Below, one piece after another: positions 31,321-58,200 of a stretch of 64,000 nt of DNA (within the stretch, counting starts at the first letter, position 1; each line of letters starts with the position of its first letter). The DNA comes from Styela clava (taxonomy: Eukaryota), in the NCBI RefSeq assembly GCF_964204865.1, contig NC_135262.1, forward strand, positions 1,240,001 through 1,304,000, written 5' to 3'. The notes below the pieces were generated by a model that ran no database searches, was not told the DNA's origin, and saw only the letters and a program-made list of their open reading frames with translations. A program made the translations under genes and the position numbers.

Positions 31321-33639
31321 TGTTATTATTCAAACATGACGTGGCATGCGACAAGATTACTTTGAAAACGTATTCTCATTTTAGTTAACCCTTGCGCCAC
31401 CTAATTCACATTCCTATTTAGATGGGATAGCAAAAAAATACGTGCTGATATCAAACTTTATCACAAAACGTACTCCATAAAATTCATTTGTTCAAACTCA
31501 ATAAAACGAGTGTGTAGCTCCAGTTTGGTTTTGCCTTCCTTATGGAAGTGGCAACATTTCATGCATACTGGTACAGATATTGTAAGGTAGAAACTAACAA
31601 ACACATTGAACCCTATGGCGGTTCCACTGTTATCTTGTTCATTCCAAAATGTATTCGTTAATAATGCAAATGAGCAAGATTATAATAATTAAACCTTACT
31701 TAATAAAACGTTATTTATGAAAGCTTGCACGGCCATTGAAAACAACCGTTCTCGAGTGACATATCCACCGTGTTCGGCGAGTATACGAGATTTCACAAAC
31801 TATACATACCCGGCATATGGACTAATAATTAAAAGCTCAGTGTTCGAAGTAATTCTTTATCTGCGTTAAATCAACAGTTTCGATATTGGTATCGCTTACT
31901 CAATACATGAATTTCGTGCGATGATACCGCTGTGGTATCGATACCTCATAAGATAAAAGAGTGAATAGGAATTGGGTTATTTTGGTCGGTGGCCCAAACA
32001 TGAAATTGTCATTGTGGAGTGGCCCTGATTGGAACATGCCTGACAGCGAATTTCAGCTTGCTAATTATTGTTCTTATTAAGTTTAAATCGAAGTTTTGAA
32101 AGTCCGTGATTGCGCTTGGACTAACTAAACTACTGATAGAGGAATTGAGTAATATCATTGGCAAATTGAAAAACACTTAAAGATTCATGTGTAGATATCA
32201 CTGGCCAAAACAGAAACTAACCCAAGGTGTGTTCTATTGCTACATGTTAGCCATTCTGTGTGCACTCGCCATTTTAAAAGAACTTTATTAATAAAGATAA
32301 CAAGGTATATATTAGCGGTCACTATACGGACTCGGAGTAGTCAAACTCGAAATTTCTAAAGCCAAATCCATGAGAGAACTTCCGACATGCGCTCGATTCA
32401 ACCGTATGAATAAAAACCGCCGTTTAGTTTCAACTCAGTAAAAACTATCCATGAACTCGGCAAATGATCATCGTTTACCTATTTGATGATATAACTCAAA
32501 TAAATCCAGCCCTCGGGCGTTTCATAAAGCTATTTTTCGTGATTTGACGAGGTACACGCGACGATAACGTAACATTGTTTACTAGAAAAGGTCCCGAATT
32601 CGATTCCCAACACGTCTAGTGACTATTAATTACAATTAACAAAATGATCCATAGCTCTACTTCGAGACCAAAATTAATGATTTGCGTAAATATCTCTGTT
32701 TGGCCAAACGAAAAACCAAGTCTTCACAAAAAATCGCTCCATAAGCATGTGAACCAAGATGGCGGTGTTATTTATAAGTAAATGGATATCGGTTTTCATA
32801 TTTTGTATATTTGGAAATTTCGTAATTTACTACTTTGTAATTTTGTTTTCGATAAATGAAAATAAAACACATCCCTAAAATAAGACCTACTGTTATTTTT
32901 TGAAAGAAAATTGAAATGAGACTTTGTCATATTTTCCCATTGTTACATACATCAGTTATTGATTTTCAGTTGTGAACATTAAAAATACTTTTTATGAATG
33001 CATTTGAAATTAGTCTTATTCGATGAAGTTAATTCTTAATTTTGCGAACAATCTAGAAAATTATCGTTAGACAATTTATAACTTTGATCATTCGATGGTC
33101 GGACAAAAATGATAGTTTAAACTTCTGACGTGAGTGCGAAAAAATTAATCGGAATGATTCTTACCTCAAGCTGTCGCATTATCAAATGTTAAAAAAAACT
33201 CACTCAGCGTAGTTTGTTTAATTTAAGACTCTCAGAGGTTCTCAAAATTTTTAGGTCGCTCTCCCTTTTTAGAATTTGTCGAGTTTCGCCCCACCTCTAA
33301 AATAACCACCTAATAATGAACTACAAATAACGGACAATAACACAAAAGTATTTTTTTATTCAAAAAAAAACACGTTGAAAATACGTGGATGGAACGTAAA
33401 TAACCAAAATAAAGAAATGTAAATATCCAAAAGACGGCGGAAAGATCAAATAAATATTTTCCAATCAACTTCGCGCCCCCTCAAAAAATTGTCTATGCCT
33501 TGTGGGGCGCGCCCCGCCGTTAGAGAACTGATGCCTAGCTGCACACTCACACAAATGTATTTTGTTTGACCGAGATTTGTTTTTGGAGAAAGCTATCTAG
33601 CTTTAACGAGAGATAAAAACGTCTAATTCTCACAATTAT

Positions 33640-36900: not shown

Positions 36901-37303
36901 TTATACAACCACTGAGATCGCATACTAAAGTGGTACAGATCAGCCCACCCCATTAGATTTCATTTAACGTAAATAAAGACTTGCGCTTACTCATTTGGTT
37001 TCTGCGGGACTAACTACTTATCGGCCTTCTATGCTTTTGTAACGGTGGATCCGTATGAGTATGCACGGATGCTATAGCAAGAGTGAGAGAGATTTATTTC
37101 GTCAACCAAAATAAAAGCATTGAATCAATAAAAAATATATACAATATACACAAAGTAATTCGGTATAGACTCGGGGGAGCGATATGACCATAGGGTCATT
37201 TGAGTCAGCTCCCCCCAAAATAGATAGCTATCCTAAGTGATTTGAGAGTTTTGCTGCACACTAACACATTTAAAGGCTTTTCTTGTTATAGTTGAACTAT
37301 GTA

Positions 37304-37336
37304 TGTCTGAGGAAGTCTGACGAAACGTTACAGAAA
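37304..37336 (+). ncRNA. Degenerate Penelope-type minimal hammerhead ribozyme motif (stem II collapsed)
   Basis: TGT-CTGAGGA-A-GTCTGAC-GAAACGTT-ACA, followed by the same tail (TTTGTGTTAGTGTGCAGCAAGACTC) as the 47.4-kb copy. Confidence 0.5.
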
Positions 37337-37462
37337 TATATTTGTGTTAGTGTGCAGCAAGACTCCTGAATCGCCTAATAAAGAATGGCATCCCAATCTC
37401 TTTATCATATTTTTACAGATATTCTTATTAATTTAAACTGTAGAGGTGGGAAAATTGCAAAC

Positions 37463-40400
37463 ATGAAAACATCATTGGTTATAGCTGTTCTGGTTTTTGT
37501 ATGCTGTACCCTGGGACAGGCACTTCTTTGGGGAGACGATGGTGGGGGAAAAAAACAAAAAATAAGAGGTATGGCTACGAGTACGATTTATCTCTAGTGA
37601 CTGAAGCAACCACTTTCTATGCTCAAGTGATATCGACAGTAGGTCCATGAGTTTTTGCCCATTCTGGTCTTCAGTATTCCAGTTAGAATAGTAGTTCTCA
37701 ACCAGTGGTACGTAGAAGATTTTCGAGTGGTACGCGAGCAGTTTGTTGGCAGCAGAGTTGGCTAAAATATGGCGACAACGTTTCAACTTCCATTCTGAAT
37801 GTATTTGCTGTACGGGTTTATAGTATTCCTAGTTCTTGTCTTGAGATCGCCCTCGCTCACTACTGCCTATCTAAAACAAACGATGATCAAAGCCTTTCAG
37901 CTCCGAAGGCAGACGACGCAAATTCTCTCGCGGTTTTGCACGCAATTAGTACGTTGTTATTGCATAAAATTAATACGTTAAAACTTTGCACGAATGTCTG
38001 AAATGGATGTAGTCAGTGATGAGCTGGAAAAATCGTAACAACCGGAACGCACCTAATTCGCAAAAATGTAATATGTTTGCAACATGGCGCGGACGTTAGC
38101 AGAAAGTTTTGTATGTCCTAAGATGAAGTCAAAGAACTGCAATGAAATATTAAGAAATTATCTGAAATGTGCATGTGTAAAATTACTGGAATATTCATAG
38201 CAATTCAATACAAATGTTATTATTAGAGTATTGGATAAATTTCAATGGGGTCAAAGGTCAGGGAAACATATATTACATTACACGTTACTGCTGTACTATT
38301 TGCGTGATGTGATGTAAAAAGAATTACGGATTATGAAGTAACCAAACATAAATTTATAACTAGGTTTACCAGAAAAACTAGACTTTTTGTACCATAATTT
38401 TATTTCAACAACAGGAACGCAAATGCAGTAAAATGTCCAATAACAAGAACGCCGTTCCGGTGCGTTCCGGCTACAGCTCATCACTGGATGTAGTGTCACC
38501 TAAAATTCTCCCATAGGTTCTTGTGTCATTGTTCCTCATCCTAAAAGGGGGTTTTGTCGTGGTACGCAATCAGTAACATGTTGAGAAGCACTGAGATATC
38601 AAAGTCACAATTTTACGTTAATTCTGTTCAACTTTACATAAAAAGTCGTCTCATAAAGTTAATTTAAATTGCTCTGCCGCCCCCTATAATTTCAACTTGA
38701 GATAAATCAAATATTTCTGCATCCACAAGTATAGATCAAAGTATATACAGGGTTTCCGCAATATCTCATACCGTGTTTTCCGGAAAATAAGACCAAGCTT
38801 GAAAATAGCATTGCATATTTAGGAATGACCACTTGTATAGACACGATAGAAAAGTGCAACAGCTTCTGAGAAAGTCTGCGCCACTCGTAAATTGAGTCTT
38901 TATGTTGAGTGAAATATTCAATTCATGACCGACGCGAGCTTTCAATATGTCTTCCAATTTTAGTTTAATGTTAGCGTGTTCTACGTAACTTGCGCCTGCG
39001 TCGAACTGCGAATCAATCGACTTTTTTTTGACTTTCAACTTGTGCATTATTCACTATTGTTCTTAGACTGCAAATGGGTCGCATGGTCAGGTTCGAAATG
39101 CTTTCACATAGGCAACGGTGTGTACAAAATAAAACAGACGCGAAGAAAGATTCCAGCCAAGAACGGAGGCGCTGCTTGTAAAGGAAGCAACAAGCGTGAA
39201 ATAGGTAAGTTCTGTGATATACCGTGTTTCAACTGGCTATTTGGTTTTACGTTTATTTCAAAACGATTTATGTGATATAATGGGTCGGTGTTTTTTGCGA
39301 GAAAAACTGTTCCAAATCTGCAATAAATCCTTTTTTTTATGCTTACTCTAACCGATTGTCGAAAGTTTTACATCTATAGTAAACCGGAACATATCGCGAA
39401 TTCCACGTAATATTCTTACTCCTTATGTTTTGCCAACACTTTTATATCTGTTATAACCCAGAACATATTTAAGTCACACTCCTAAAACCATTTTTCTAAA
39501 GGTCATATCGAACCCAGAACATACCATGAATCCAACTTCATATGCTTACTCTAACCATTTGCCTTATGTTTTATATCTATCCTAACCCAAAACATACCAT
39601 GAATCCCACTTCATATGCTTACTCTAACCATTTGCCTTATGTTTTATATCTATCCCAACCCAGAACATAGCATGAATCCCACTTCAGATGCTTACTATGA
39701 CCATTTACCATAAGTTTTATATCTATGCTAACCCAAAACATACCATAAACCTCACTTAATATGCTTACGCGCGAGACTTGACAAATTCTAAAAAGAGGAC
39801 GCGGATAAAAGGTTTGCGAACCACTACACATTTCACATTTGTATATTTACTTCATATATGCAATTTTCATTCAAATACCATATTTACCATTTTTATCCAT
39901 TCCAGATTGCACTCCAGTTGAGTATACCGCCTCCGCTTTCTTCGATTCGTTCACAGCTGGTACTGATGACGGATCAACTGTTCGTAGGGTGAGAAGCTCT
40001 TACTAATTTAAGACTATCGACAAATATTTGTATTATGCGTTTTCATAAAGTGCTAAAAACATAAGAGTAAAACTAATCTTGGCACTAAGTTTGGAAGGCC
40101 AAGGGCCTTCAGGATTTGGGATTCCTCCATAACATGTGAATTATAATTATAACGGTTTATAAACCTTCAAGACAACCCTATATCCAGTGGTAGGATTCAG
40201 CCGGTTCGCACCGGTTCTATAGAACCGTCTCACGCAATTGTATGAGATCAGCGATCTGGTTAGCATTACTGGTTACGGTCAATGTTCTGTTTGTAACAAG
40301 ACCTGCTGAAAATGTGACTTTTGTGAAGGAACCGACTGACAAAAAATTTGAAACCCACCACTGTCTATATCATAATACACTAAAAATAATAGAACAAACG

Positions 40401-43400
40401 GTAGTTGTAAATACAAAAAGTTATCTGCGGTGCACGTAACCATAAATTTGCTGCGGTCGTCTATCGTTTAAATTCCTAAAATAACTCGACATTTCGCGCT
40501 AACGATTTGGTTGTAACACTAAATTTTATTGCTAAAATTACCTAAGTCGCTTAGACCAGTGGTTCCCAACCTTCATACATATCAAGCGACCCAACTTATA
40601 TATTTTGTAAATTCTTGCAACCCAAGAATATGCTAAAAGATTAAACGTGTACTCTTGTGGGTACTCCTGTAGTAAGCGAACCAAGATGGCGGGCACCGGA
40701 ACGTAGCATGTGTACCATGTAAGGGTTAGGCCAGGGGTTCCCAAGCTTTTTTCAGGACGACCCCAAAGACAACTTTCAAGTGTCCAGTGCGACCACAGCT
40801 CAATATATATATTTTTCATGGAACTTTAGAGCTTTTTTCTATTGGACTTTTGAGATTGGTCATGTGGTGGTATTAATTAAAATAAGCTAAAACCAAACAG
40901 TGATGTCACAACAATCACCTACATTTTCTATAGCATAAGCATAGAGCAATGCCTATGGGCCTGTTTTACAGTAAGCCATGGTACAAACTGCTAAATTTAA
41001 CATGGTTTGTCAAATCTTAGATGTTTTGCACATCCACCCTCTACCATAACTCAGCGACCCCATGAACTGTTTGCGACCCTACCTACTTATCACTCCGACC
41101 CAGTTTAGAGTCGTGACCCCTGGTTTGGGAACCCCTGGGTTAGGCCATAATTTCAGGTACAATTACTACGGGAGTCACTCGGCTAGTCCCCAAACTCGTA
41201 ATAAAACTAAAATAAGAAAAATTGGAATAAAATGATGGTCTAACCTTAACCTTGCACACATTAATTAAAAAAATAACATTTACTTTCTGAGAAATTACTT
41301 TAAAGTGGGAACTCCGCTCCTGTTTTTCGTCAGCAAGTTTTTTAAATCGACGCGTCGCTTATTTAAGCGAAATAAATGCTAGCAAGCTTTTACGCAGACA
41401 CGCAATCACTATTATGGCAACACTTCATATATATATATATTCAATAAAATTTACTATAAAATGAAATAATTACCTTTTAGGTTTTTACTGAAAAAAGCGA
41501 CCCCAAACAAAGTTTCAGGCTACCAAGTTTTGAGTCGCGACCCATAGGTTGAGAAATACTGGCTTAGGCTAATAATGGTTGCTACGACGGCCTACCGGTA
41601 CCGAAAAAGTGTGAAAAAACATCACGATTCGGCGACAGTAAGAGATTGGCAACGACAAAGTATATTACCTTCTTCTTTGTAATATTGATAACTAATGCTA
41701 ACTTGCTTTTTCAAAGCTATAAAACAACATGTCAGGACTAAGCGACAAAACATATACTTTTCGCTGCGTAGTTTTCACTGGGTCAAGTTTTTCAATAGTG
41801 ATATCATTAATGTGTATTGTTTCATTGTTACATCACTTCTAATTATAATACCTATTAAGTTGTTACAGTAGTATAGGTTTAAATTCAAAGTTAATTAAAA
41901 TTCGGTCTTCGGCTCCCGGAAGACACATCTTCAAATTGTTGATTAAAATCTCGGGTAAACAATTGTATCTCGTTGTCAGAGGGAAGTAAAAGAGATGATT
42001 AGCTCTGATATAGGATGAACGAATCTCTTTTGATTCCTAAATCCAGTCTGGAGATAACTACCGACTTATTACTTATTGATCTTAAGATTGGTAAGTATGT
42101 TGTTCCTTATCGATCTTAAGATCGGTAAGTATGTTGATAGGTATTTGTCTGTCTGTTTGTCTGTGTGTTAGATGCACGCGATATCTCCCGGAAGCGAGGT
42201 TGAATCTGCTCCAAATTTTGCATGTGCATTCATCATAGCTCGGGTCAGAAGCCTATTGATTTTGGGTGGATTATGTCTTATAATTATCGATTTATTAAGT
42301 TATTAGTGATGGGACACACGGTGTCACTATGGAGTAAGACCACTGTTTTGGGGGATCCTCTAACCTTCGATCGATAAGTCTTCGGTTTCTAACCGATATT
42401 CCAGTTTCATATTTAGGAGATATAATTATTCAAATCCTGGATATAACAATTGTCTCTCGCTCGGTTACCAAGCCCCGTTTGGTGCTAACTATTTTACAAT
42501 TGCAGGTCTGAAATGGGCAAAATACGGCCCGCGGGCCGGATTCAGCCCGTAGGGTAATTCAGTCTAGCCCCCGGATGCTGCCACAATCAAGCTGAAACCA
42601 AGTTTTGATGTTTAAACTAAAAGATAGCTCAATGAATTTATTGGGGTATAGGTCAACGTTTCCCGCTGTAGTATATATATTCATAATATTTTTCAGCTCT
42701 TCATTATTACAATGATTCTCACACTAGGGCTGGGCATTTCGAATCAAATATTCGAATATTCGACTCGACTCGAATAGTAAATTATTCCAATCGGTTCAGA
42801 GCTAAATTTCGAATCGCCGTCATCTTGTTTTTATCTTTCCGCTAATGGTCGAGGTGAATTCCCCAATTTTTTTTTATTGGAGTCATATTTTTTTAACGAA
42901 ATTCTAACGTATTACTATTTTCTGTAGTGTTATGTTATTCTGTGTGAACGCTGAGTAATCTATCTGAGTGATTTATTCTATGTCTTCAGTAATTCATTTG
43001 TTGAGAGGACCAATTACTATAATAAAGTCATTATATATTTTGTATTTGAGATTCGATTCGAAAAAATTATTCGATTCGATTCTGAAATCACAAGGTATTC
43101 GAAAATACCCAGCCCCAACTCACACATTATAAATTACATGAACTGCACGAAAGCAGGAGTGCGACTTGCGCATGACACTAGGGTCCATTAAAGATCCAAC
43201 AAATAACGGAAACATAGTTTTTACGGAAAGTATGGGGGTAATAACGCGATTCAAACAGGCGAAGAGGAAAATTTGATTTAAAAAGCTGTGCACCGCTGAT
43301 TTAATGACGCCGTAATCGACCTACGATTGAATAAACCATCCCCTGGCGGAGAGGAGCTCAGCAATCTCTCTCACAAAAATCAAATGACTAATTGTTTTTA

Positions 43401-46400
43401 TATTTACAGACTGGAACTAATTTAGTAAAAAGACCAGATGGGAAAGTCACATGCCAAGAGAACTCCCACACCGATCCATCAGGAACTCTTCGAATGATGG
43501 GGAAAACTTGTGGATCGTCGAGAAAACGACGGGAAACAGGAGAAAGAGTGAAAGTAACTGAATATTCTAAATCTGGGTTCTTCAATTTTTTAAGCTGCGC
43601 CCCCTATTTAGAATTTGTCATGCCTCGCGCCCGCCTCAAAAATAACTAGCTAACAATAAGCTACAAATAACAGATAGTAAGGCGAAAGTGTGTTTTATTC
43701 AAAAAACATGTTGAAAATATGTGGATGGAATCGCAATGGAATTGTCTACGCTTTCCTTGTTGGCGCGCTCCACCGTTTGTTAATCACTATTCTATATATT
43801 CCAAGTCGTCAAACTCGATTGGCTGTGAACTCCCTCCAGGGGCGGGCCAAACTTTTTTGCTGTCCATGACAAGTTTCTGATAACGACGCCCCTTATATAC
43901 CTAACTTCAAAAATAATTCGAGGAGTAAACCGAGTAATGTTATTATACATTAGAATGACTAGATTAAAGGTAAAGTAGGATTGAAATGTTTGAAACCCCC
44001 AGAAATGTAAAAAGCATTTTCCGTAGCTTGGAACGCTTTCTAGAAAGTCTCTTCAAAACCAACTTTTCCCGACTCCGGCCGAACCCGCTAGCTCATGCGG
44101 TCTAACTTGGAAATTAGAATTCCAGGAGCTTCAAATTTCAGCAAAAGTCGAAGTCGAACTTTTGTCACCTTGAATTTGGTTTTGTCACGTAATATTACTA
44201 AATGTGAAAACATGACATCAATTCAAAGAGAAGAAGAATAGTTCTAGTGAACAAAATAGACTAGAACGTTTAATATTCTTTACTTTCACATTCATAAAAA
44301 AAAAATAAGACAACGAGTTATAATGTTAAATGATCTTTTCTTTGTCCCCAGTAATCAAAAAGAGTAATCAAAAAGTAATCAAAAAGACAACAAGGTGGAG
44401 CGTTTTTAATCATCATTTCCCTTCCCCTGTTGCTAAAAAATATTGAACCTCTTGAAGTATGCGCACCAAGATGTCGCACAACTTGAACTGAGGTTGTGTA
44501 CCAGGTTAGGGTTCAGGTTGTGCGACATCTTGGTGCGCATACTTCAAGAGTACCAAAATATTTGTTTTCAGAGATCCAATCCAATTCTGAGTGACAAACA
44601 CAGAGACGTACTTTTCCTTGTTGACGAGAGCGGAAGCGTAAACGAGAACAATTTTAAAAGAGAAATGAAGATGGCCAAAGCCTTAACTGAAAGTAAGACC
44701 TTTTTGAAATTTCACTCAACATCTGATACTGGTACACACCAGCGATCATACATTTATTTATATGTCAGAAAACACAATGTTTAGATTAGCACTTATGCAT
44801 GAAAATCGAAAGTTTGCACAAATGCCCTGATATCCAGTCACTTATGTATTTTTTATAAATCACATCTTTATTGCTGACAATGTAGTGGCCTTATTAGTGA
44901 TTTTTCTCATATTTTGTAATGCTGCAGTAAAACCAGATCAGCTTATGTCACATTCAAATTTTGGGAAAATCGCCTTTTTGTAATTTTTTGATCTACACAG
45001 CTATATTTAAAATGGACATGAGGTACCACCTAATATTAACGGTCCAAATAAACATAAAATTAAAAAAGTCCATTTTTGAAAAATGTGGCACCTCGGTTTA
45101 GCTGTGGTGATATATTTATTTTTGAACTTGGCTATCCCATTTTTTTCAGAACTCTGCGGAAGCATCGCTGTTGGCAAACACACAACAAGAGTCGGCGTTA
45201 TGACATTTGATAAAGAGAATCATGTTCACCTCGGCTTCGATGAACTTTTTGAGCGACACCAAGTTTTGAATCATATGAAGGATATTACGTGAGTATCACT
45301 TTAAGATATGATCGATTTTATCTGATTTTCACGGAGTTCAGCGGATAAGACCTCAAATATGATAGAATTGTGCACTTTTGGATGCAAGCATGAAACTTGG
45401 AACACATGTAGTGTAGCATCTTCTGATTAATCTTGGATATGGTGCCATTCAAAAAAATACCCCGTTGCCATGGAAACGAGGCATTATCCGTATTGCTATC
45501 CAAGGGTAAGAATACTTTAGGAAAGAATATTTCCAAGATAAGTAAACCGATGTGTACTTAAGAAGTAAGGAATATGATAAAAAGTGCATTTTGACAATTG
45601 CCCTTGATAACAGAATACCTGGTTACCATGGAAACGAGGTATCGTTATCGATCAAACACGATTATTAGTCGCACAACCTGAACGCTAACCGGAACACAAA
45701 TACTACGTTCATGTTGTGCGCTACCTTGGTGCACATACTTCTGGAGCTCACCCATCCCTATTAATATGTGTACTAGGTTAGGGTTAGGCCATAATTTTAG
45801 GTATAAATACTACGGAAGGCTCTTGGCTAGTCTTCGAACTGATAATAGGACAAAAATAGGGAAAATTGGAAAAAAATTATCGCCTAACCCTAACTTAGTA
45901 CACATGTTACGTTCCGATGTCCGCCATCTTGGTTCGCATACTTCGGGAGCACCGAATATTGTCTTTAAAAAATACGTCTCTCCGTTCCTTGTTGAAAAAC
46001 GTCATTCGGAATCCACATTGCGTTTCCCACTCATAGTGATGGATTTGTTACAGTGGCTGGCAAATTACGGCAGCTGCAGAGAGAATGTTGGTAGAAAAAT
46101 AAGTCCAAACCTAGACTAAGGTTTATATAATAAACAGCATAATGTAGCAATCGGATCATCTTGGATGAGTTTCAGGTATATGTGGCTGGTTTTCCACATT
46201 ATTTACAGAAGCAGATAATACATTCTATATCGTAGCCGAAGACTCGTTAGTCTCAACGCAAATGTATATACATAGAAAATATATTATATATATTGTAGTC
46301 GTAAATTCTACAGGCACAAGTGGGCCGGATGAAATACTTCGGCGAGCTGGATCCTGCCCGCGGTATTTCGCCCTCCCTGCCTTAGTGGTACTTGAATCAA

Positions 46401-49400
46401 TCGGACTTCAATCAATTATTGGAAACGAAGAGTACATATGGATCGTTTTATTATTATTTTGTTCTTGCACCAAGGAGGCGCACAACATGAATGTAGTATT
46501 CGTGTTCCGGTTAGGGTTCAGGTTGTGCGACTAATAATCATGTTTGGTCGATACCTCGTTTCCATGGTAACCAGGTATTCTGTTATCAAGGGCAATTGTC
46601 AAAATGCGCTTCTGATCATATTCTTTACTTCTTAAATACACACCGGTTTACTTATCTTGAAAATATCCTTTCCTAAAGTAATGTTTTTTTTCACTTTTAT
46701 AGCTATACGGATGATGCCTCGTTTCCATGGCAACGGGGTATTTTTTTGAATGGCACAATATCCAAAGTTGATCAGGGGATGCTACTGTACATGTGTACCA
46801 AGTTTCATGCTTGCATCCAAAAGTGCAGGATTTTACCTCTTATCCGCTGGACTAACGTATAAACCCAATGTGATGAAATCTAAAACAAACATTGAAATAT
46901 TAATTTGGGTTGGATTGCGCGAGACTAACCTCCTATCCTTTCTCAATGCCTTTATGCCAGTGGATCCGTATGCGTATGCTGCAAGGATGCTGTAGCAGGA
47001 ATAAACATGACCATACTATGCCATTCAAGAGTCTTGCTGCACACTAAATCAAATGTATTTCTGTAACGTTTCGTCCGACCAGAGTCACACTTCCTCAGAC
47101 AAGCAGTTTACAACAATCTGATTGTTGTAATTAACTCGAAAATCGTGTGCACTGAACTCCAACAAACCTCAGTATTTTCACTACATTTTATAAGACTGCA
47201 ATTCCATTGGATACCAGGCAATATACTGTTCTATATCTGTCACAATGATTATAATCGCGGTGCTCAGGAAATGTGTATCGCGTAACGTACGAACGTGTCT
47301 AACAGACAGACAAATACCTATCAACATACCTACCGATCACGATCGATAAATAACGAGAAACATTGATTCATTGTAGTTAACGTGGGAATCAGATTGTTGT
47401 AAACTGTTTGTCTGAGGAAGTCGGACACTGGTCGGACGAAACGTTACAGAAATACATTTGTGTTAGTGTGCAGCTGGACTCTTTAATTGGATTGAAATAT
47501 AAAGTTCGATTTTTATTAATAGTTAGTCTTTGCACTTTTTCACCTTTTAAATGTTTTTCTCTCCTTTTTTTTTCCTCGTATACTTGTATGTATTTGTAAT
47601 GAGGAAGGACATCGACAAGGTTGTCCCTGGAAACATCCATGAAATGGGAAGATACAAAAAAATATGTCTTATGGACAAGCCTGCATACTGCAAACTTATT
47701 ATTTACAGTGTTTATGCCTTTCGCGGCCTTTATGCCTTTTTCTTTCGACTTAATTTATTTTCATTTGTGTTCACAATGTTTCCTGCATAACGAACATAAA
47801 AAATCTAATGTTTTCATTTTTTTTCAGTTACAATTCGAAAACAGCCGGACGGACATGCTTAACAGACGCTCTGGATTATTCTTTAAAAAGCGTGATCGTT
47901 CCTGGACGTGGGGCAAGGAATAAGGTTCCAGGAACGGAGAGGGTCGTCGTACTTATTACTGATGGGTAAGCTGCGAAACCTTAAACGCTTTGATATCATA
48001 TTAATATTATAGAATAAGATAGGCTTTACATATTTATCTAGGGACGATAAGACGGCTAAATCATATGGCGAACCACGGCCTTTCGTCCTGTTACCAGTAG
48101 GGCTGGGAATTTCAGGGAAAACACTTTAACCGTTAACCGGGTAAAATTAACCGGTTAACCGCAGCGTGACGTTCATATAATAATTTATAATTTAGCTTGT
48201 TACGTCACAATGGTTACAAAGCAATTTCGCGTGACCTTATTCTGGTATCGCTCAAAATTATTCACGAATCGAGATAGTTTCGTGATCGCTCTGCTGCAAG
48301 AGATATGCAGCATGGGTAGGTCATATGGAAGTATTTTAGTAAAACCCGATTCCGTTATTAAATTTCATTTATGTGACAAATTTTCAGTGTTTGATGTGCA
48401 AATTTTACTTTGAGATATATAAGGAAAAACAGCATCAACTACGCAATTGTTGGTTGACATTGTTTACGATTTTGAAATAAAATCGTGAACAATATATTCC
48501 GACCGAAAACTGATTCATAATTAATTATCGTCAAATTTTCATAATCAGCAATCTTGGTACTTCAATTTTTTTCACATTTATTGGGTCCACACCAATACAG
48601 TTAGCGATATTCTTTTGAATTAAACGCCACATGAGATAAATTTGCGATGACGTAATCATTTTTGGAAGAATTGTACATTTTAAAGATGATTTGTACCTGT
48701 GATGCCAGTTAACGGTTAAAATAAATCGTAACCGTTAACCATCTAAAATCGGTTAACTGATTAACCGGTTAACCATTCCAAGCCCTAGTTACCAGTCAAT
48801 GTCGGATGTGTAATTATTCAGCCAGTTATTTGTTTTCGGAAGTATGAACTTGATAGGGCGGGGATGGCGATCTTTTTCAAGGAATGGATCAAATATTATA
48901 TTTTCATCCCGTAACAGAATAGAGGCCCTAGTATTAATTAATATGAAATTTGTTGTTACATCACGAAGTAATACTTCTGCATTCCCTTCCCGAAAACAAC
49001 AAAATTTCGTTCAAAATTCCCCAATTTCAACATAGTCAATCCTCAACTGACACATGGTTCAATCATCAACTGACTAGACCCAGTAAGCCTGGCCAACAGT
49101 TGTACTTATCACAATGTCTCGTCTATACAATAATAACCAACGTTGGTTCTCCGAGGATTCAAACTGTGTGATTATCCTTTTTTTAATTTTGTGTATGATT
49201 ATTTTTTTTTGTACCCCGCGACTTCTACTCCCAGTAAAAATGTATGATTATCTACTTTTTTAACGTCGTGTATGTTTTATACTGGTTGAAAAGCGGAAGT
49301 ACTCCCTCTCAAAATGTGAAAAAAAGATTTTTTTTGTATCATACATTACAGTTGATAAACTCGAAACGCATTTTAGACATTCAAGGGGGGTTACGCCCCC

Positions 49401-51674
49401 CCCCCCCCCCCCTGTTTTTGAATGATAGTTAGAATAGTACTCCTGTTACCTTTTTATTATTGTATATTACTGTTTTTACTGGTTGAAAAAAGAAACTTGA
49501 TTTGATTTATATTCCAGGTGCGCAAATTGCAGAAACCAAAACTCGCTCCCGAATGCTTTGAATAAGATGAGAATTAAATTTGAGAAGGAAAAGATCCCGT
49601 TTATCACGTTTTTCATCGGAAGCAACACGAACTGTGTCAGAATCATGGCGGTGAGTTGATGAACGTTTTCAAACTTTGGTTTGGAGTAGCTGACAACTAG
49701 GGGCGCACACTTTTGCGGGTCGGACTTGGACTTGCACACACACACACACATACACACACCTTCGAAATGTAAAAAAAAAGGTTTTGACCCGCTAGTTGTC
49801 ACGATCAGATTCAGATTCAGATTTTATTTTCGTCATGCAAAACCAATATACGATATGAAAAAATAAAAAAAGGCATATAACAAATTACGAAGACGGATAT
49901 CGGCTTGTTGCAATAGACGAGGGATCGCGAAAGACTCAAAGAGTCATCCAGTCAGCGACACCTTGTAGCTGCATTGAAGCAGCAAATATAGCAACCGAAC
50001 AACTCAATATTAAATAGTCACTAAATTCGACACAATCATATATATAAAAGGGACAACAAAAAGAATGCCACAATGACCACGAAAATTTACCTAAACATTC
50101 ACTAAATTAGACTCACTACAATTAGAAATTTTACAACCCCCCTTTTGAAAATTCCCTTGTTGACATCCACAAGAATAAACTGTCCTCGGGAGCCGTGTAA
50201 AGCGTGCGAAAATTCGTTATTTATGTATTATTACTAGCGGAGAGAGAAGTTGATAAGACGGCGTAATCATATCACGAACCACAGCCTTTCGTCCGGTTAC
50301 TTAAGTATAAGTATAGGTTTATTTCGACTCCATAATCAGCAATAGACGATAATAATAACAGATAAAACAAAAATAAATGTAACTGATTATAGAATCGGGA
50401 GAACGAACAAAACCTCGACTTTCGTCCGGTTACTTGTTCAGGATTAGTTGAGTTTTTGTTTGTGACTTTTTTTATTGAATTAGATCCTCAAGACATATGA
50501 ATCATTTGGATTTTAAACAAAGAGTTCATCACTCAGTCAGTTAGAGGAGTTGTCTCACACAATAACAAGCATGTTTCGTCAATAACTCACAAGGCAGAAA
50601 AGAGTCATATGTATCCCAGAACTGCGTTTTACAAATATGACGAATCCAAATTGCCGTCTGAATCAATTTGAATTATTAACTATTGAATTGGATTCGAAAG
50701 CTCGATTCAAAATGTCTTGCTCTAGATTCAGATATTTATTATTCGTTAGGCAAGAATCAATTTGAAGCAGAAGAAAAAAGCAGCAAACCAAAAAACTAGA
50801 TAACGATCGAAGACTACCGACTTCGATCTAGCGGCGTGTATCCTTCGCTCTGACTCAATAGCGACACTGCGTGTCCCATCACCGAGATATGATGTGTGAT
50901 ATGAGATATGATGAATGCACGTGCAAAATTTGGAGCAGATTCAACCTTGCTTTCGTGATATATCGCGTAACATACGAAAGTGTCTAACAGACAAACAAAC
51001 AAACGAGAATATCAGTCGGAGACCGAAGACCTATCGACCGAAAGTTAGGGGATCCCGGAACAGAGACCGCGGTTTCGATTCATCCGCTCTTACTCCATAG
51101 TGACACCGTGTGTCATATAATTAATACCTCGCTAATTATACGACATAATTCATCCAAAATCTATAGGCTTCTGGTCCGAAATATGATGGATGCACATGCA
51201 AAATTTGAAGCAGATTCAACCTCGCTTTCGTGAGATATCGCGTGTATCTAACAGACAGACAAACAAACAAACAAATACCTATCAACATACTTACCAATCA
51301 AGATCGATAAATAACGAGAAATATCGATTTATTGCAATTAACGTGAGATCGCGAAAGACTCAGTGAGTCATCCAGTCAGCGATATCAAATGCTGTAATAT
51401 AGCAACAAATAAAGAAATGAAGCAATCTGATGAAAAAAAATCATCTCTAAATCACACAAGCATGGGAAAACAACTCAGCAATAAATTTGAATTAAATTAG
51501 TCAACTGGAACAAGTAACTTATTTGTAACTTCTTTCCAGGGACTCGCTGATGGCTCCCGTTGCTACCAAGTTTTCAGAGCGACGACCTGGCAAGAATTTG
51601 ACGCTATGATTGAACACATTGAGAAAAGAGATTGCATGGACGGTTGGGAGATCGGGCCTAGCTGCCCAGCTTAG
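37463..51674 (+). CDS. Secreted TSP1-like plus vWA domain protein, 378 aa. Exons 37463-37568, 39067-39204, 39906-39988, 43410-43553, 44572-44692, 45150-45288, 47828-47965, 49518-49650, 51540-51674
   Basis: Exon sum is 1137 nt, phases compatible, all GT-AG. Signal peptide MKTSLVIAVLVFVCCTLGQA; TSP1-like DCKWVAWSGSKC...QTRRKIPAKNGGAACKG...DC; vWA DVLFLVDESGSV...TRVGVMTF...GRTCLTDAL...RVVVLITDG. Extra small exons cannot be excluded. Confidence 0.87.
37689..38593. mobile_element. hAT-like MITE containing a second MITE
   Basis: TAGTAGTTCTCAAC ... GTTGAGAAGCACTG termini; GTGGTACG subterminal repeats. Confidence 0.6.
38014..38486. mobile_element. hAT-like MITE
   Basis: TIR CAGTGATGAGCTG/CAGCTCATCACTG; perfect TSD GATGTAGT. 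Confidence 0.9.
39338..39768. repeat. ~73-bp minisatellite, about 6 degenerate units
   Basis: TATGCTTAC-type unit starts at 39338, 39411, 39541, 39614, 39687 and 39760. Confidence 0.85.
40185..40363. mobile_element. Short hAT-like MITE
   Basis: CAGTGGTAGGATTCA ... TGAAACCCACCACTG; TSD CCTATATC/TCTATATC. Confidence 0.75.
40557..41561. mobile_element. Three-level nested insertion: outer hAT MITE, then a GGTTAGG-family element (~40660-41262), then an inner hAT MITE (40732-41137)
   Basis: Outer TSD GCTTAGAC/GCTTAGGC; inner TIR CAGGGGTTCCCAA with perfect TSD GGTTAGGC. Confidence 0.82.
42068..42406 (+). mobile_element. HINE-like element with a duplicated 5' hairpin
   Basis: TTA(C)CTTAT.GATCTTAAGAT.GGTAAGTATGTTG occurs twice (42068 and 42103) before the family body. 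Confidence 0.75.
42725..43117. mobile_element. hAT-like MITE (TAGGGCTGGGC family)
   Basis: TIRs; TSD TCTCACAC/ACTCACAC. Confidence 0.82.
44449..44550. repeat. Palindromic mini-element (40-bp arms) of the GGTTAGG family
   Basis: CTCTTGAAGTATGCGCACCAAGATGTCGCACAAC...GTTGTGCGACATCTTGGTGCGCATACTTCAAGAG; sibling at ~55835-55940. Confidence 0.88.
45334..46855. repeat. ~400-bp inverted repeat pair (45334-45733 and 46467-46855) in vWA gene intron 6
   Basis: The arms align as reverse complements over their length (e.g. GACAATTGCCCTTGATAACAGAATACCTGGTTACCATGGAAACGAGG). Confidence 0.88.
47060..47103 (-). ncRNA. Penelope-type minimal hammerhead ribozyme motif
   Basis: Reverse complement reads TTGT-CTGAGGA-A-GTGTGAC-TCTG-GTCGGAC-GAAACGTT-ACAGA. 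Confidence 0.6.
47407..47450 (+). ncRNA. Penelope-type minimal hammerhead ribozyme motif
   Basis: TTTGT-CTGAGGA-A-GTCGGAC-ACTG-GTCGGAC-GAAA-CG-TT-ACAGA: core CUGANGA/GAAA, stem II hairpin with one mismatch, palindromic ACGU in place of stem III. Confidence 0.65.
48098..48787. mobile_element. hAT (Ac-like) MITE inserted into a SINE relic
   Basis: TAGGGCTGGGAAT ... ATTCCAAGCCCTA; perfect TSD GTTACCAG; TTAACCGGTTAACC subterminal motifs. Confidence 0.9.
49806..49963 (-). mobile_element. Probable LINE/SINE 3' tail
   Basis: (CAGATT)n tail plus TTTATT on the + strand and a GACTC..GAGTC stem; similar pieces at ~37090-37215 and 51345-51385. Confidence 0.45.
50795..51314 (-). mobile_element. Two head-to-tail HINE-like copies (50795-51001 truncated; 51002-51314)
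   Basis: Family consensus present twice in tandem. Confidence 0.72.
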
Positions 51675-55278: not shown

Positions 55279-58200
55279 TCATTTGCTTTTTCTTCTCGAT
55301 CTGTATTCTCTTATTTTTCCAACAAAAACAGACTCAACAATTTCCGCACACTTTGCGAGAGCAGAGTCCGCTCCGTTGAACATTCGGCAGTTATCGAAAA
55401 TTAACGATATGTCCCCCATCAGCTCCGAAAGCAGCGTGTACGACGGTAGCTTGTTCATGACGGTACCAAGATCTTAAAATAAGTTTTATTTAGAAATTAC
55501 AGCCAATCAGAAAGAGATATCGAAATTTAAAATTGGAGCAGGAATATTGAAAAATCATATATATGATATCATATATACGCAGTTATTTAAGTTTCGATTC
55601 AATTTGGAATCTGGCACTCTGAATACAATCCGATATCAAACACAATATAAATAATTATGCGGACACGAGGTTATACATTTTTTAATCAAATCCGGACCCC
55701 CCTTCGCCACAGTTTTCAATTTCAATATATATATACATTTTTTTTTTGAAGATTGCAGATGGAGAGAGTTGAATCAAAATTTTCTCACAACGAGACTTTT
55801 TTTAATAGCTTCGAGTTTGAGCTTGATAAAAAGGAGCTTCAGAAATATGTGTATCAAGATGGCACACAACCTGAACATAGTATGCATACCAGGTTAGGGT
55901 TCAGGTTGTGCGCCATCTTGGTGCACATACTTCGAGAACTCCGATAAAAATATGGAAGGGAACTTACCCATTGGCTTCTTTATTACTTTGTAATAATTCG
56001 GGACTTCGTATTTACTGACTGGTTGAAGGAACGGCCAAGCCATCTTGTGGGCCTGAAAAAGTAAGTTTATAAAAGGGTATAACACAAGTGTTAGATTGGT
56101 TACAAGTCCCATAACAAAAGTGTTGTAAGTTCACCACTAGGGTAATCAATTGCAATCGGTTGAGTAAGGAGGTAAAAAATAAAAACATTACAAAATTTCA
56201 AACAAATACAGATACAAATGACTTGGTGAAACACTTAGTCGCGCCATTGTTTAGGCTTTCAAGTAGATGCAGGCACAAAAATTTTGGTTATTGAACTTGT
56301 GAAAAAAAACATGAAAAAATCTTTTATCTTCAGCTTAATTGATTCCAAATATTCAGCAGTTGGATATGGAAGAATTCTTTACTTTCAATTTTTTTTATTA
56401 TAACTCATCATAACACTTTCATATGACATCTGAACTTCGTGCCCATATGTTTAAGCATTGATCTCTTGTATTAATTATCAAATACTGGAAGTGGCACACT
56501 TACCCTTAGTGATCTAATAATCTTTGTTAAAGCAATATGGTCCGAAGGTGTGAGTAAATTTTCTGCAACGGCTGAGCTGGCACCCTTCTTCTTGTTTTTA
56601 CACCGAGGGCATGTGTAGAACTCTATCTTATCTGCGTCCTTTTCAGAGATTCCGACGCAATCACCATGATACCAATCTTGGCAAATGTCACAACCAATGT
56701 AAAACCTGAAATATGCCGCAACCAGTTAGATGCCATGACCATTCTGTGGCATCAAATTGATACCACGTTTATGTAAATCTTTCCATTGAATGCCATGTAA
56801 AGCATCAAAGCGGTACTGTGGCAGCAGAGCAGTGCCACTCACATGAGAGTATTCATGTAACTCCTACAAGATAACTGACAAGGCATCAAAGTAGTGCCGT
56901 GGTAGTATGAGAACGCCAGTAACTAAGAACCATTTTTCAACTTCAATATTATTTGATGCCATATAAGGCATCGAAACAATGTCATGGCAGAAAAGAAATG
57001 CCACTCACATAGAATCATCATACCAATCTACCAGACTTTTCAACAAATTAACATCAAAGGCATCAAAGCAATGCCTCGGCAGCAAAGTAATGCCACTTAC
57101 ATAGAATCATCATACGGTGTCCTACATATACAATACAGCTCTTGTGCAGGTTCTTCCTTTGCTTTTTGACATTCCTCACATATCCACTCATTCATTGACT
57201 TAGCTCGTGTCTCAGGGATGCCAACGCACGTACCATGGAACCAGTTAAGACACAGATCACAGCCGATGTAGAATCTGAAAAAAGTAAACGATAGGTTGAA
57301 TGTGGCACAGTCTAGCAAGCCAGGTCTCGTTCCCTCGACCAAAAATGGAAAGAGTACCGATAGAAGAGTTGCAAGTTTGCTCAAAGCAAGGTACCGAGCT
57401 CTCAACTAAAAGTGGAAAGAGTACTGATAGAAGAGTTGCAAGTTTGCTCAGAGCAAAGTACCAAGCTCTCAACTAAAAGTGGAAAGAGTACTGATAGAAG
57501 ATTTGCAAGTTTGCTCAGAGCAAGGTGTCGTGCCCTCAACTAAAAGTGGAAAGTGCACTTCACAGACTTGGGTAGGAATAAAACAAACAATAACACACTT
57601 ACTTTGTAGGATCATACTGCGTCTTACATATGCAGTATAGCTTTGTATCTTTCTTCTTAGATTGCGTGTTTATCATTTTCGTTTTTTTTGTTTCGGGAGG
57701 CGGGGACATAGTTTCGCGACGCTTCTTTATGATTGGTTGTTGATTTCCTTTGCCTTCTTTGATTGGTCGCTTTGAATTGTTCTCTGTCAAGACAGCACTT
57801 GTTACGATAGCGTTTCCTGATGTTTTCTTTGGTCGTTTAGAAACTGGTGCCCCTGTTGATTCGGTCACATTTCTGCGGTGTTTGCGTAAATCCTCACGAA
57901 GCTCGTTCTGATGAAATAGAAGAAATAAATGAAAAATTTAGGTTTAGAGCTTGATTTCAGTCTAATCTGTGCTTCACTTGCTAAAAATGACATAGGAATA
58001 GACATATGCAGGGGCGTAACCAGAAATTTTCAAAGGGGGGGTTGACATTTTTTTGCCAAGTTAGATCGAAACAGCTAGCGGAGTTCGATCGAACGCTGGA
58101 ATACGCATGTTTTTAGTAGTCTTAGGGGTCTAAAAAGTCTTTTAAGCTACAGAAAATTGCTATCTATGATACAGAAAAATGATTTTATATTTTTTACATT

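Follow-up and report, generated by a model that had tools for sequence, protein, structure and literature searches.

The inverted pair of hammerhead motifs found in an intron of a Styela clava gene is best explained as one short head-to-head insertion of Penelope-like pLTRs, lying in an intron that is spliced out and carrying two mutated hammerheads that are predicted to lock one another by pairing. We put the probability of this reading, in which the insertion is likely inert for the host gene, at roughly 0.88. The arms are pLTR fragments of a young EN+ Penelope-like family, and the locus is a real, ordinary relic of a known kind. Taken singly it matters little, being one of hundreds of decayed copies with a described motif in a described layout; its modest value is as a single instance from a family whose ends open the mechanism to test. 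These ends bear on two matters left open in the accessible text of PMC3846280 and PMC11167929, the origin of head-to-head Penelope ends and whether the hammerhead cuts the template, and they name positions that can be tested: −53 for the start of transcription, and about +50 and +165 for the starts of reverse transcription (RT).

Positions are those of the window, the whole 64,000-nt stretch of DNA that was analyzed. Element positions are counted from the predicted cut, with +1 at 47446 on the plus-strand arm. The features of the locus are as follows:

39066..49651, plus strand: seven host exons, defined from contigs, with a 299-aa open frame and six GT-AG introns
45289..47827, plus strand: host intron, GT-AG, inside the vWA-like domain; contigs of runs X1, X2 and X4 join 45288 to 47828
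46891..46900, plus strand: left copy of the 10-bp target-site duplication (TSD), the 10-mer being identical at both outer ends
46901..47117, minus strand: long pLTR arm with tail, element −53 to about +165, 90.5% identical to the young copy L031
47060..47102, minus strand: minimal hammerhead antisense to the host gene, with a G·G mismatch at the third helix II pair
47115..47130, plus strand: head-to-head junction and 10-nt stub of the second arm, with 3 nt between the arm ends
47115..47130, plus strand: first copy of a 16-nt direct repeat
47135..47276, no strand assigned: filler 1, 142 nt from the interior of an unrelated repeat that measures 1–2 kb or more
47276..47386, no strand assigned: filler 2, part of another unrelated repeat, of high copy number and containing a CAGA microsatellite
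47387..47402, plus strand: second copy of the 16-nt direct repeat, 15/16 identical
47393..47490, plus strand: short pLTR arm without tail, element −53 to about +45/+50, 95% (95.2%) identical to L031
47408..47450, plus strand: host-sense minimal hammerhead, with G·G at 47423/47434 and the predicted cut at 47445/47446
47491..47500, plus strand: right copy of the 10-bp TSD, the same 10-mer as 46891–46900

The two inverted arms (47018–47123 and 47387–47492) are each 106 nt long, 90% complementary, and separated by 263 nt, confirming the inverted copies at 47029–47121 and 47387–47481 reported in the initial annotation. The start given there for the cassette, 46905, falls slightly short, as left-arm homology continues to about 46901. 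Each arm contains a CTGAGGA core followed by an additional A, then a 7-bp hairpin whose loop has 4 nt (7+4+7), GAAA-CG-TT, and TGT/ACA flanks, the hairpin leading through GAAACGTT into a short helix I. This composition agrees with that claimed except in the minus-strand hairpin, the 5' strand of which reads GTGTGAC and not GTCnGAC. In the plus-strand copy the core occupies 47412–47418, the extra A 47419, and helix II 47420–47426/47431–47437. A G·G mismatch breaks one helix II pair in each window copy; the plus-strand copy nevertheless keeps all of its catalytic core bases, and six of its seven helix II pairs can form. The minimal type I core (CUGANGA / GAAA / UH, with a palindromic 15.2–16.2 and no helix III) is present, with U at H17. 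The motif pattern matched the 377-Mb genome exactly 512 times (257 forward, 255 reverse) compared to 0 matches in a reversed control, indicating that the motif is not due to chance. Rfam covariance models gave no hammerhead family at E ≤ 5 over positions 44000–50000.

Assignment to the minimal hammerhead type is supported by a match in features to the min-HHR as described in the accessible part of PMC4209133: helix III is lacking, positions 15.2–16.2 are palindromic (CG), the family's helix II has 7 bp with a G10.1-C11.1 pair, an extra base lies between 9 and 10.1, and helix I is of 4–5 bp. The published type has a helix II of 7–8 bp, many solo copies, and opposite-strand pairs, the last two likewise found here; such pairs are reported there to lie 100–700 bp apart in metazoan Penelope-like elements. 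The present case differs in that the family sequence is new, the window copies have helix II mismatches, and cleavage is only predicted.

A DNA search of the animal's own genome yielded 3014 candidates, of which the best 40 were scored (129 matches), and ten wider stretches were examined. The window arms are 90–95% identical to the pLTR of copies that contain an ORF with RT and GIY-YIG. The 893-aa frame of copy L032 matches RVT_1 (PF00078, E = 2.8e-10) and GIY-YIG (PF01541, E = 4.5e-05), both above the curated cut-off; it also has the DKG and YIDD motifs, with a Cx3CxxC linker at residue 760 of P0002. The genome search for full-length Penelope elements thus recovered an ORF with RT and GIY-YIG adjoining the same motif, and the Penelope origin claimed in the initial annotation is upheld. 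In L031 and L032 the motif is found in a partial tandem, about 680 nt past the stop of the long ORF and 199 nt ahead of the next ATG; L031 runs from the ORF end through the 3' region and the motif to the start of the next ORF, the order of a partial tandem forming pLTRs. The inverted copy, one-sided tail, and target-site duplication of EN+ Penelope-like elements are all present in the window. The order of RT, a Cx2-5CxxC linker, and then GIY-YIG at the C terminus is shared with the Neptune/Nematis clade, for which the linker is described in the accessible part of bioRxiv 10.1101/2021.04.23.441226; membership of the family in this clade is set by motif only, without a tree against reference elements.

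Other loci were noted in the course of this search. L031 (2050–9001) and L032 (2385–8501) are young Penelope arrays, tandem and inverted, that contain long open frames (97–99% alike); the family was recently mobile. L034 (3570–4662; at about 14.33 Mb of G000:C3) has a 360-nt unit repeated in tandem as three identical copies that span the hammerhead and ORF start, a retrozyme-like derivative of the window's Penelope family. At least six near-identical multi-kb segments on G000:C19 (5.3–6.7 Mb; L015, L028–L030, L033, and L035) each contain the same head-to-head insertion; they may reflect segmental duplication of the locality, or else a larger carrier element. In L223, L225, L226, and L227 there are a few cores that resemble a hammerhead but have unrelated AT-rich stems, possibly from another Penelope family. 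Within the window there is an older second head-to-head relic of the same family, at 36995–37078 (minus) and 37279–37371 (plus), with a short match at 33537.

The structure of the cassette (46901–47490), flanked by the two copies of the 10-bp duplication, is informative at its ends and at its junction. The short arm is preceded by a G that is absent from the element. At the junction, the left arm is followed by three bases, a 10-nt stub of the right arm, 256 nt of filler, and then the junction again. The filler consists of pieces of two unrelated repeats, and no single match spanned both in the search of the same genome. The spacer was also considered as a neat later transposon insertion, which is not shown, both pieces being internal fragments that lack ends of their own. 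Restarts of a like sort, without a long filler, occur in copies L040 and L211, making it plausible that the filler was captured at integration; the alternative is that it was inserted later. The layout is shared with the EN+ inverted-pLTR insertions described in the accessible parts of PMC3846280 and bioRxiv 10.1101/2021.04.23.441226, which have head-to-head arms, a one-sided tail, a target duplication of about 9–14 bp, and captured sequence between the pLTRs. It differs in its tail of about 110–115 nt, compared to the 30–40 bp described in the text available, and in that both window arms are reduced to the pLTR. The two arms differ from each other at 12 of 100 bases, subfamily sites included: the long arm has older-subfamily states at +30, +31, and +39, sites at which the arms disagree. 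A single simple event does not on its own explain these differences.

To place the locus among its relatives, we used 295 distinct copies from all samples, with a few segmental duplicates among them. One sample drew on a pattern just past the cut, which matched 363 times; 100 of these matches were used, giving 98 distinct rows. Another drew on a tail pattern with 124 matches, of which 100 were used, giving 96 distinct rows. The 5' end could be placed in 212 of the 295 copies, the remainder extending past −60 (60 copies) or being ambiguous (23 copies). In the tail sample, 5' ends fell at −54 to −52 in 20 of 96 copies, which is 20 of the 76 ends within −100 to +94, where 1.2 would be expected; there was no significant pile-up at the cleavage site (−3 to +1) in the same sample (3/96). 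Among 130 copies of at least 92% identity, an extra non-element G preceded 13 of 20 ends at −53 compared to 18 of 68 elsewhere (p = 0.003); with −54 to −52 pooled the count was 19/42 (p = 0.06). The bases around −53 fit an initiator. A 3' splice site was rejected as the source of the −53 peak, no AG being found there. The pile-up together with the extra G suggests that −53 is likely the RNA start and that the template is likely uncut by the hammerhead. In L1, an extra G is taken as the mark of a reverse-transcribed cap, according to the accessible part of PMC4859970.

The 3' ends of the family cluster at +44 to +54 and at +161 to +166, and this is reflected in how arms are combined. We counted 85 head-to-head pairs among the 295 sampled copies, 40 of them with a flanking direct repeat of at least 9 nt. 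Long and short arms were combined in 53 pairs, no pair had two long or two short arms, and 32 involved another end. The back-to-back layout described in the initial annotation is, with 85 such pairs, the routine insertion form of the family and not peculiar to this cassette. Both arms reach −56 to −50 in 10 of 61 long-plus-short pairs (counted with wider bins), the window included. Arms of a pair are closer to each other than shuffled arms (8.0% vs 11.0% divergence; 46 pairs, 0/2000 shuffles). Four of 30 typed TSD-bounded pairs, the window again included, disagree at no fewer than two of the three linked subfamily sites, and the older state is always on the long arm. The discordant arms could derive from two RNA templates, from a source with unlike pLTRs, or from later gene conversion. 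Long-arm 5' ends at +40 to +59, an interval set post hoc, numbered 11 of 76 (p = 0.16, or p = 0.013 without the −56 to −50 peak); this excess, a signature of twin priming on a single RNA, is weak.

The pattern of ends and the subfamily differences between arms fit twin priming on a capped, uncut RNA. By such a route, the element protein would nick the two target strands 10 bp apart, and reverse transcription would extend each nick, one from about +165 and the other from about +50. Both cDNAs would run to the 5' end of the uncut RNA at −53, and the two products would be joined head to head, the junction in this instance including a restart and 256 nt of unrelated filler. A more specific version, which we offer tentatively, has both target strands primed by an asymmetric complex at the fixed positions +165 and +50 (about 112 nt apart) of a sense, capped, uncut RNA, with copying to −53; two RNAs of different source elements would sometimes be used, and the window would be such a case. 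If true, the small insertions of this family would be a fossil record of how Penelope head-to-head ends form, and asymmetric priming would replace the published reading of self-priming on an antisense template, which is suggested for inverted pLTRs in the accessible text of PMC3846280 with the matter left open.

Two known systems invite comparison with this scheme. PAc, the Poseidon element of Anolis carolinensis, also has 3' ends fixed at two positions, which would be the sites where RT starts, and in the accessible part of PMC11167929 nothing points to RNA ending at the ribozyme cut; in vitro, PAc extended both strands and the template was found uncut. It differs in that its hammerhead overlaps the ORF start and its start sites are inside the ORF, whereas the 3' ends of the window family precede the ATG (+199). 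L1 twin priming, as described in the accessible parts of PMC4859970 and PMC11702581, likewise produces a 5' inversion inside one TSD and an extra G at full-length 5' ends, and rare L1 insertions from two RNAs are reported in the latter. L1 arms are mostly non-overlapping and the second start is not fixed, whereas here the same 100 nt is often copied twice. We found no report of a cap G or of two templates in the literature on Penelope inversions, subscription papers, supplements, and figures being largely beyond that search.

Two independent Penelope insertions of different age, which chance or homing would have placed 270 nt from each other, are an improbable source of the cassette. Such a history would account for the differences at +30, +31, and +39, for the unequal identity to L031 (90.5% vs 95.2%), and for the unrelated filler that separates the arms. 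However, the two outer ends share one bounding 10-bp duplication, −53 is the start of either arm, six junction bases are common to both, the long-plus-short geometry is the rule in the family, and a like discordance is found in three other TSD-bounded pairs of the 30.

Our preferred reading, a single inert insertion, also requires consideration of the host transcript. Contigs of four runs, judged RNA-like by guess, were compared with positions 38500–50500. In three of the four runs, from two studies (X1, X2, and X4), one contig continued unbroken through exons 44572–44692, 45150–45288, and 47828–47964, indicating that the intron 45289–47827 is removed and supporting the claimed placement within a sense intron; no contig of run X6 fell on the host exons. 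The spliced contigs may come from animals without the insertion. A contig in all four runs joins left-arm sequence at 46997 to 47446, the first base after the predicted cut; the joint is probably from another genomic copy. The vWA part of the TSP1-vWA label given to the gene is supported by weak Pfam matches on three consecutive exons to successive parts of the profile (E = 0.001–0.09, each below the gathering score); for TSP1, a Pfam search of its exon gave no match. The first exon presumably resembles TSP1 by motif.

The initial annotation proposed that the plus-strand hammerhead could cut this pre-mRNA or be masked by fold-back with the antisense arm. Of the sampled copies, 159 have the motif without gaps; any given helix II pair is formed in 150–158 of these, and 94 have an intact core with all pairs. 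Neither window copy is of this kind. Common subfamily changes in the stem are one-sided with pairing kept (U·G 109 / U-A 38; C-G 133 / U·G 22), two-sided changes are rare, and the copies are related. Loop 2 (12.6%) and N7 (9.4%) vary most, compared to 3.5% in the core. A search for other hammerhead families with a different first stem base gave only 5 matches, too few for covariation. By ViennaRNA, whose figures are equilibrium predictions, the probability of helix II is 0.77 in L031, 0.03 in the plus arm alone, 0.35 in 47131–47520 (without the antisense arm), and 0.0 in the pre-mRNA context. There the plus-strand core is paired to the antisense arm with a probability of 0.92, and forcing the hammerhead fold costs 69 kcal/mol, so that masking by fold-back is indeed predicted. 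The antisense arm, being transcribed first, would pair with the sense arm in a duplex of about 100 bp, and this would be removed along with the intron.

Cutting of the pre-mRNA is accordingly disfavored. According to the accessible part of PMC4209133, a single min-HHR motif gave no cleavage in vitro and dimers cleaved at a low level; this motif type needs a dimer on one strand, and the antisense copy of the cassette cannot serve as the partner of the plus-strand copy. Nor does the window have an intact partner on the plus strand: the one further copy found there (37279–37371) lacks 11 nt of helix II. Because both copies are mutated and predicted to pair with each other, cutting of the host RNA is unlikely. 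That the plus-strand hammerhead should even so cut, with help from the element protein or from an RNA partner acting in trans, and thereby affect host expression, appears very improbable. Its core bases are intact and it lies in sense orientation in the intron, and a related hammerhead, that of the anole element, cleaves when the element's protein is present (accessible part of PMC11167929). Against this are the G·G mismatch, the fold-back penalty, the splicing of the intron in three of four runs, and the 5' ends at the cut site in only 3 of 96 family copies, which is no significant excess (p = 0.09–0.21).

We give least credence, and very little, to the cassette being a mobile unit of its own (a retrozyme or foldback mini-element) or a co-opted double-stranded RNA signal for the host gene: the 360-nt pLTR-region tandem at L034, the prospect that a long duplex could be edited or diced, and the siRNAs from inverted Penelope copies described in the accessible part of PMC3681739 would be in keeping with it, but none of the best 40 scored of 3014 search candidates has both arms and the filler, no match in the genome search joins the two filler pieces, pair junctions differ from copy to copy, and the arms are decayed and not conserved. 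A non-LTR retrozyme, with same-strand tandem units each containing a hammerhead, is ruled out by the inverted orientation of the window copies; retrozymes are same-strand tandems in the accessible parts of PMC7229834 and bioRxiv 10.64898/2026.07.22.740005, the latter placing 42–44% of copies in Xenopus within introns.

The same intron contains a further pair of long inverted repeats (45508–45733 and 46466–46685), 92–93% complementary and from a different repeat, which is further double-stranded RNA in intron 45289–47827. Elsewhere in the window, exons on the minus strand at 55279–57937 encode PHD-finger- and bromodomain-like text, presumably resembling a BPTF-like gene.
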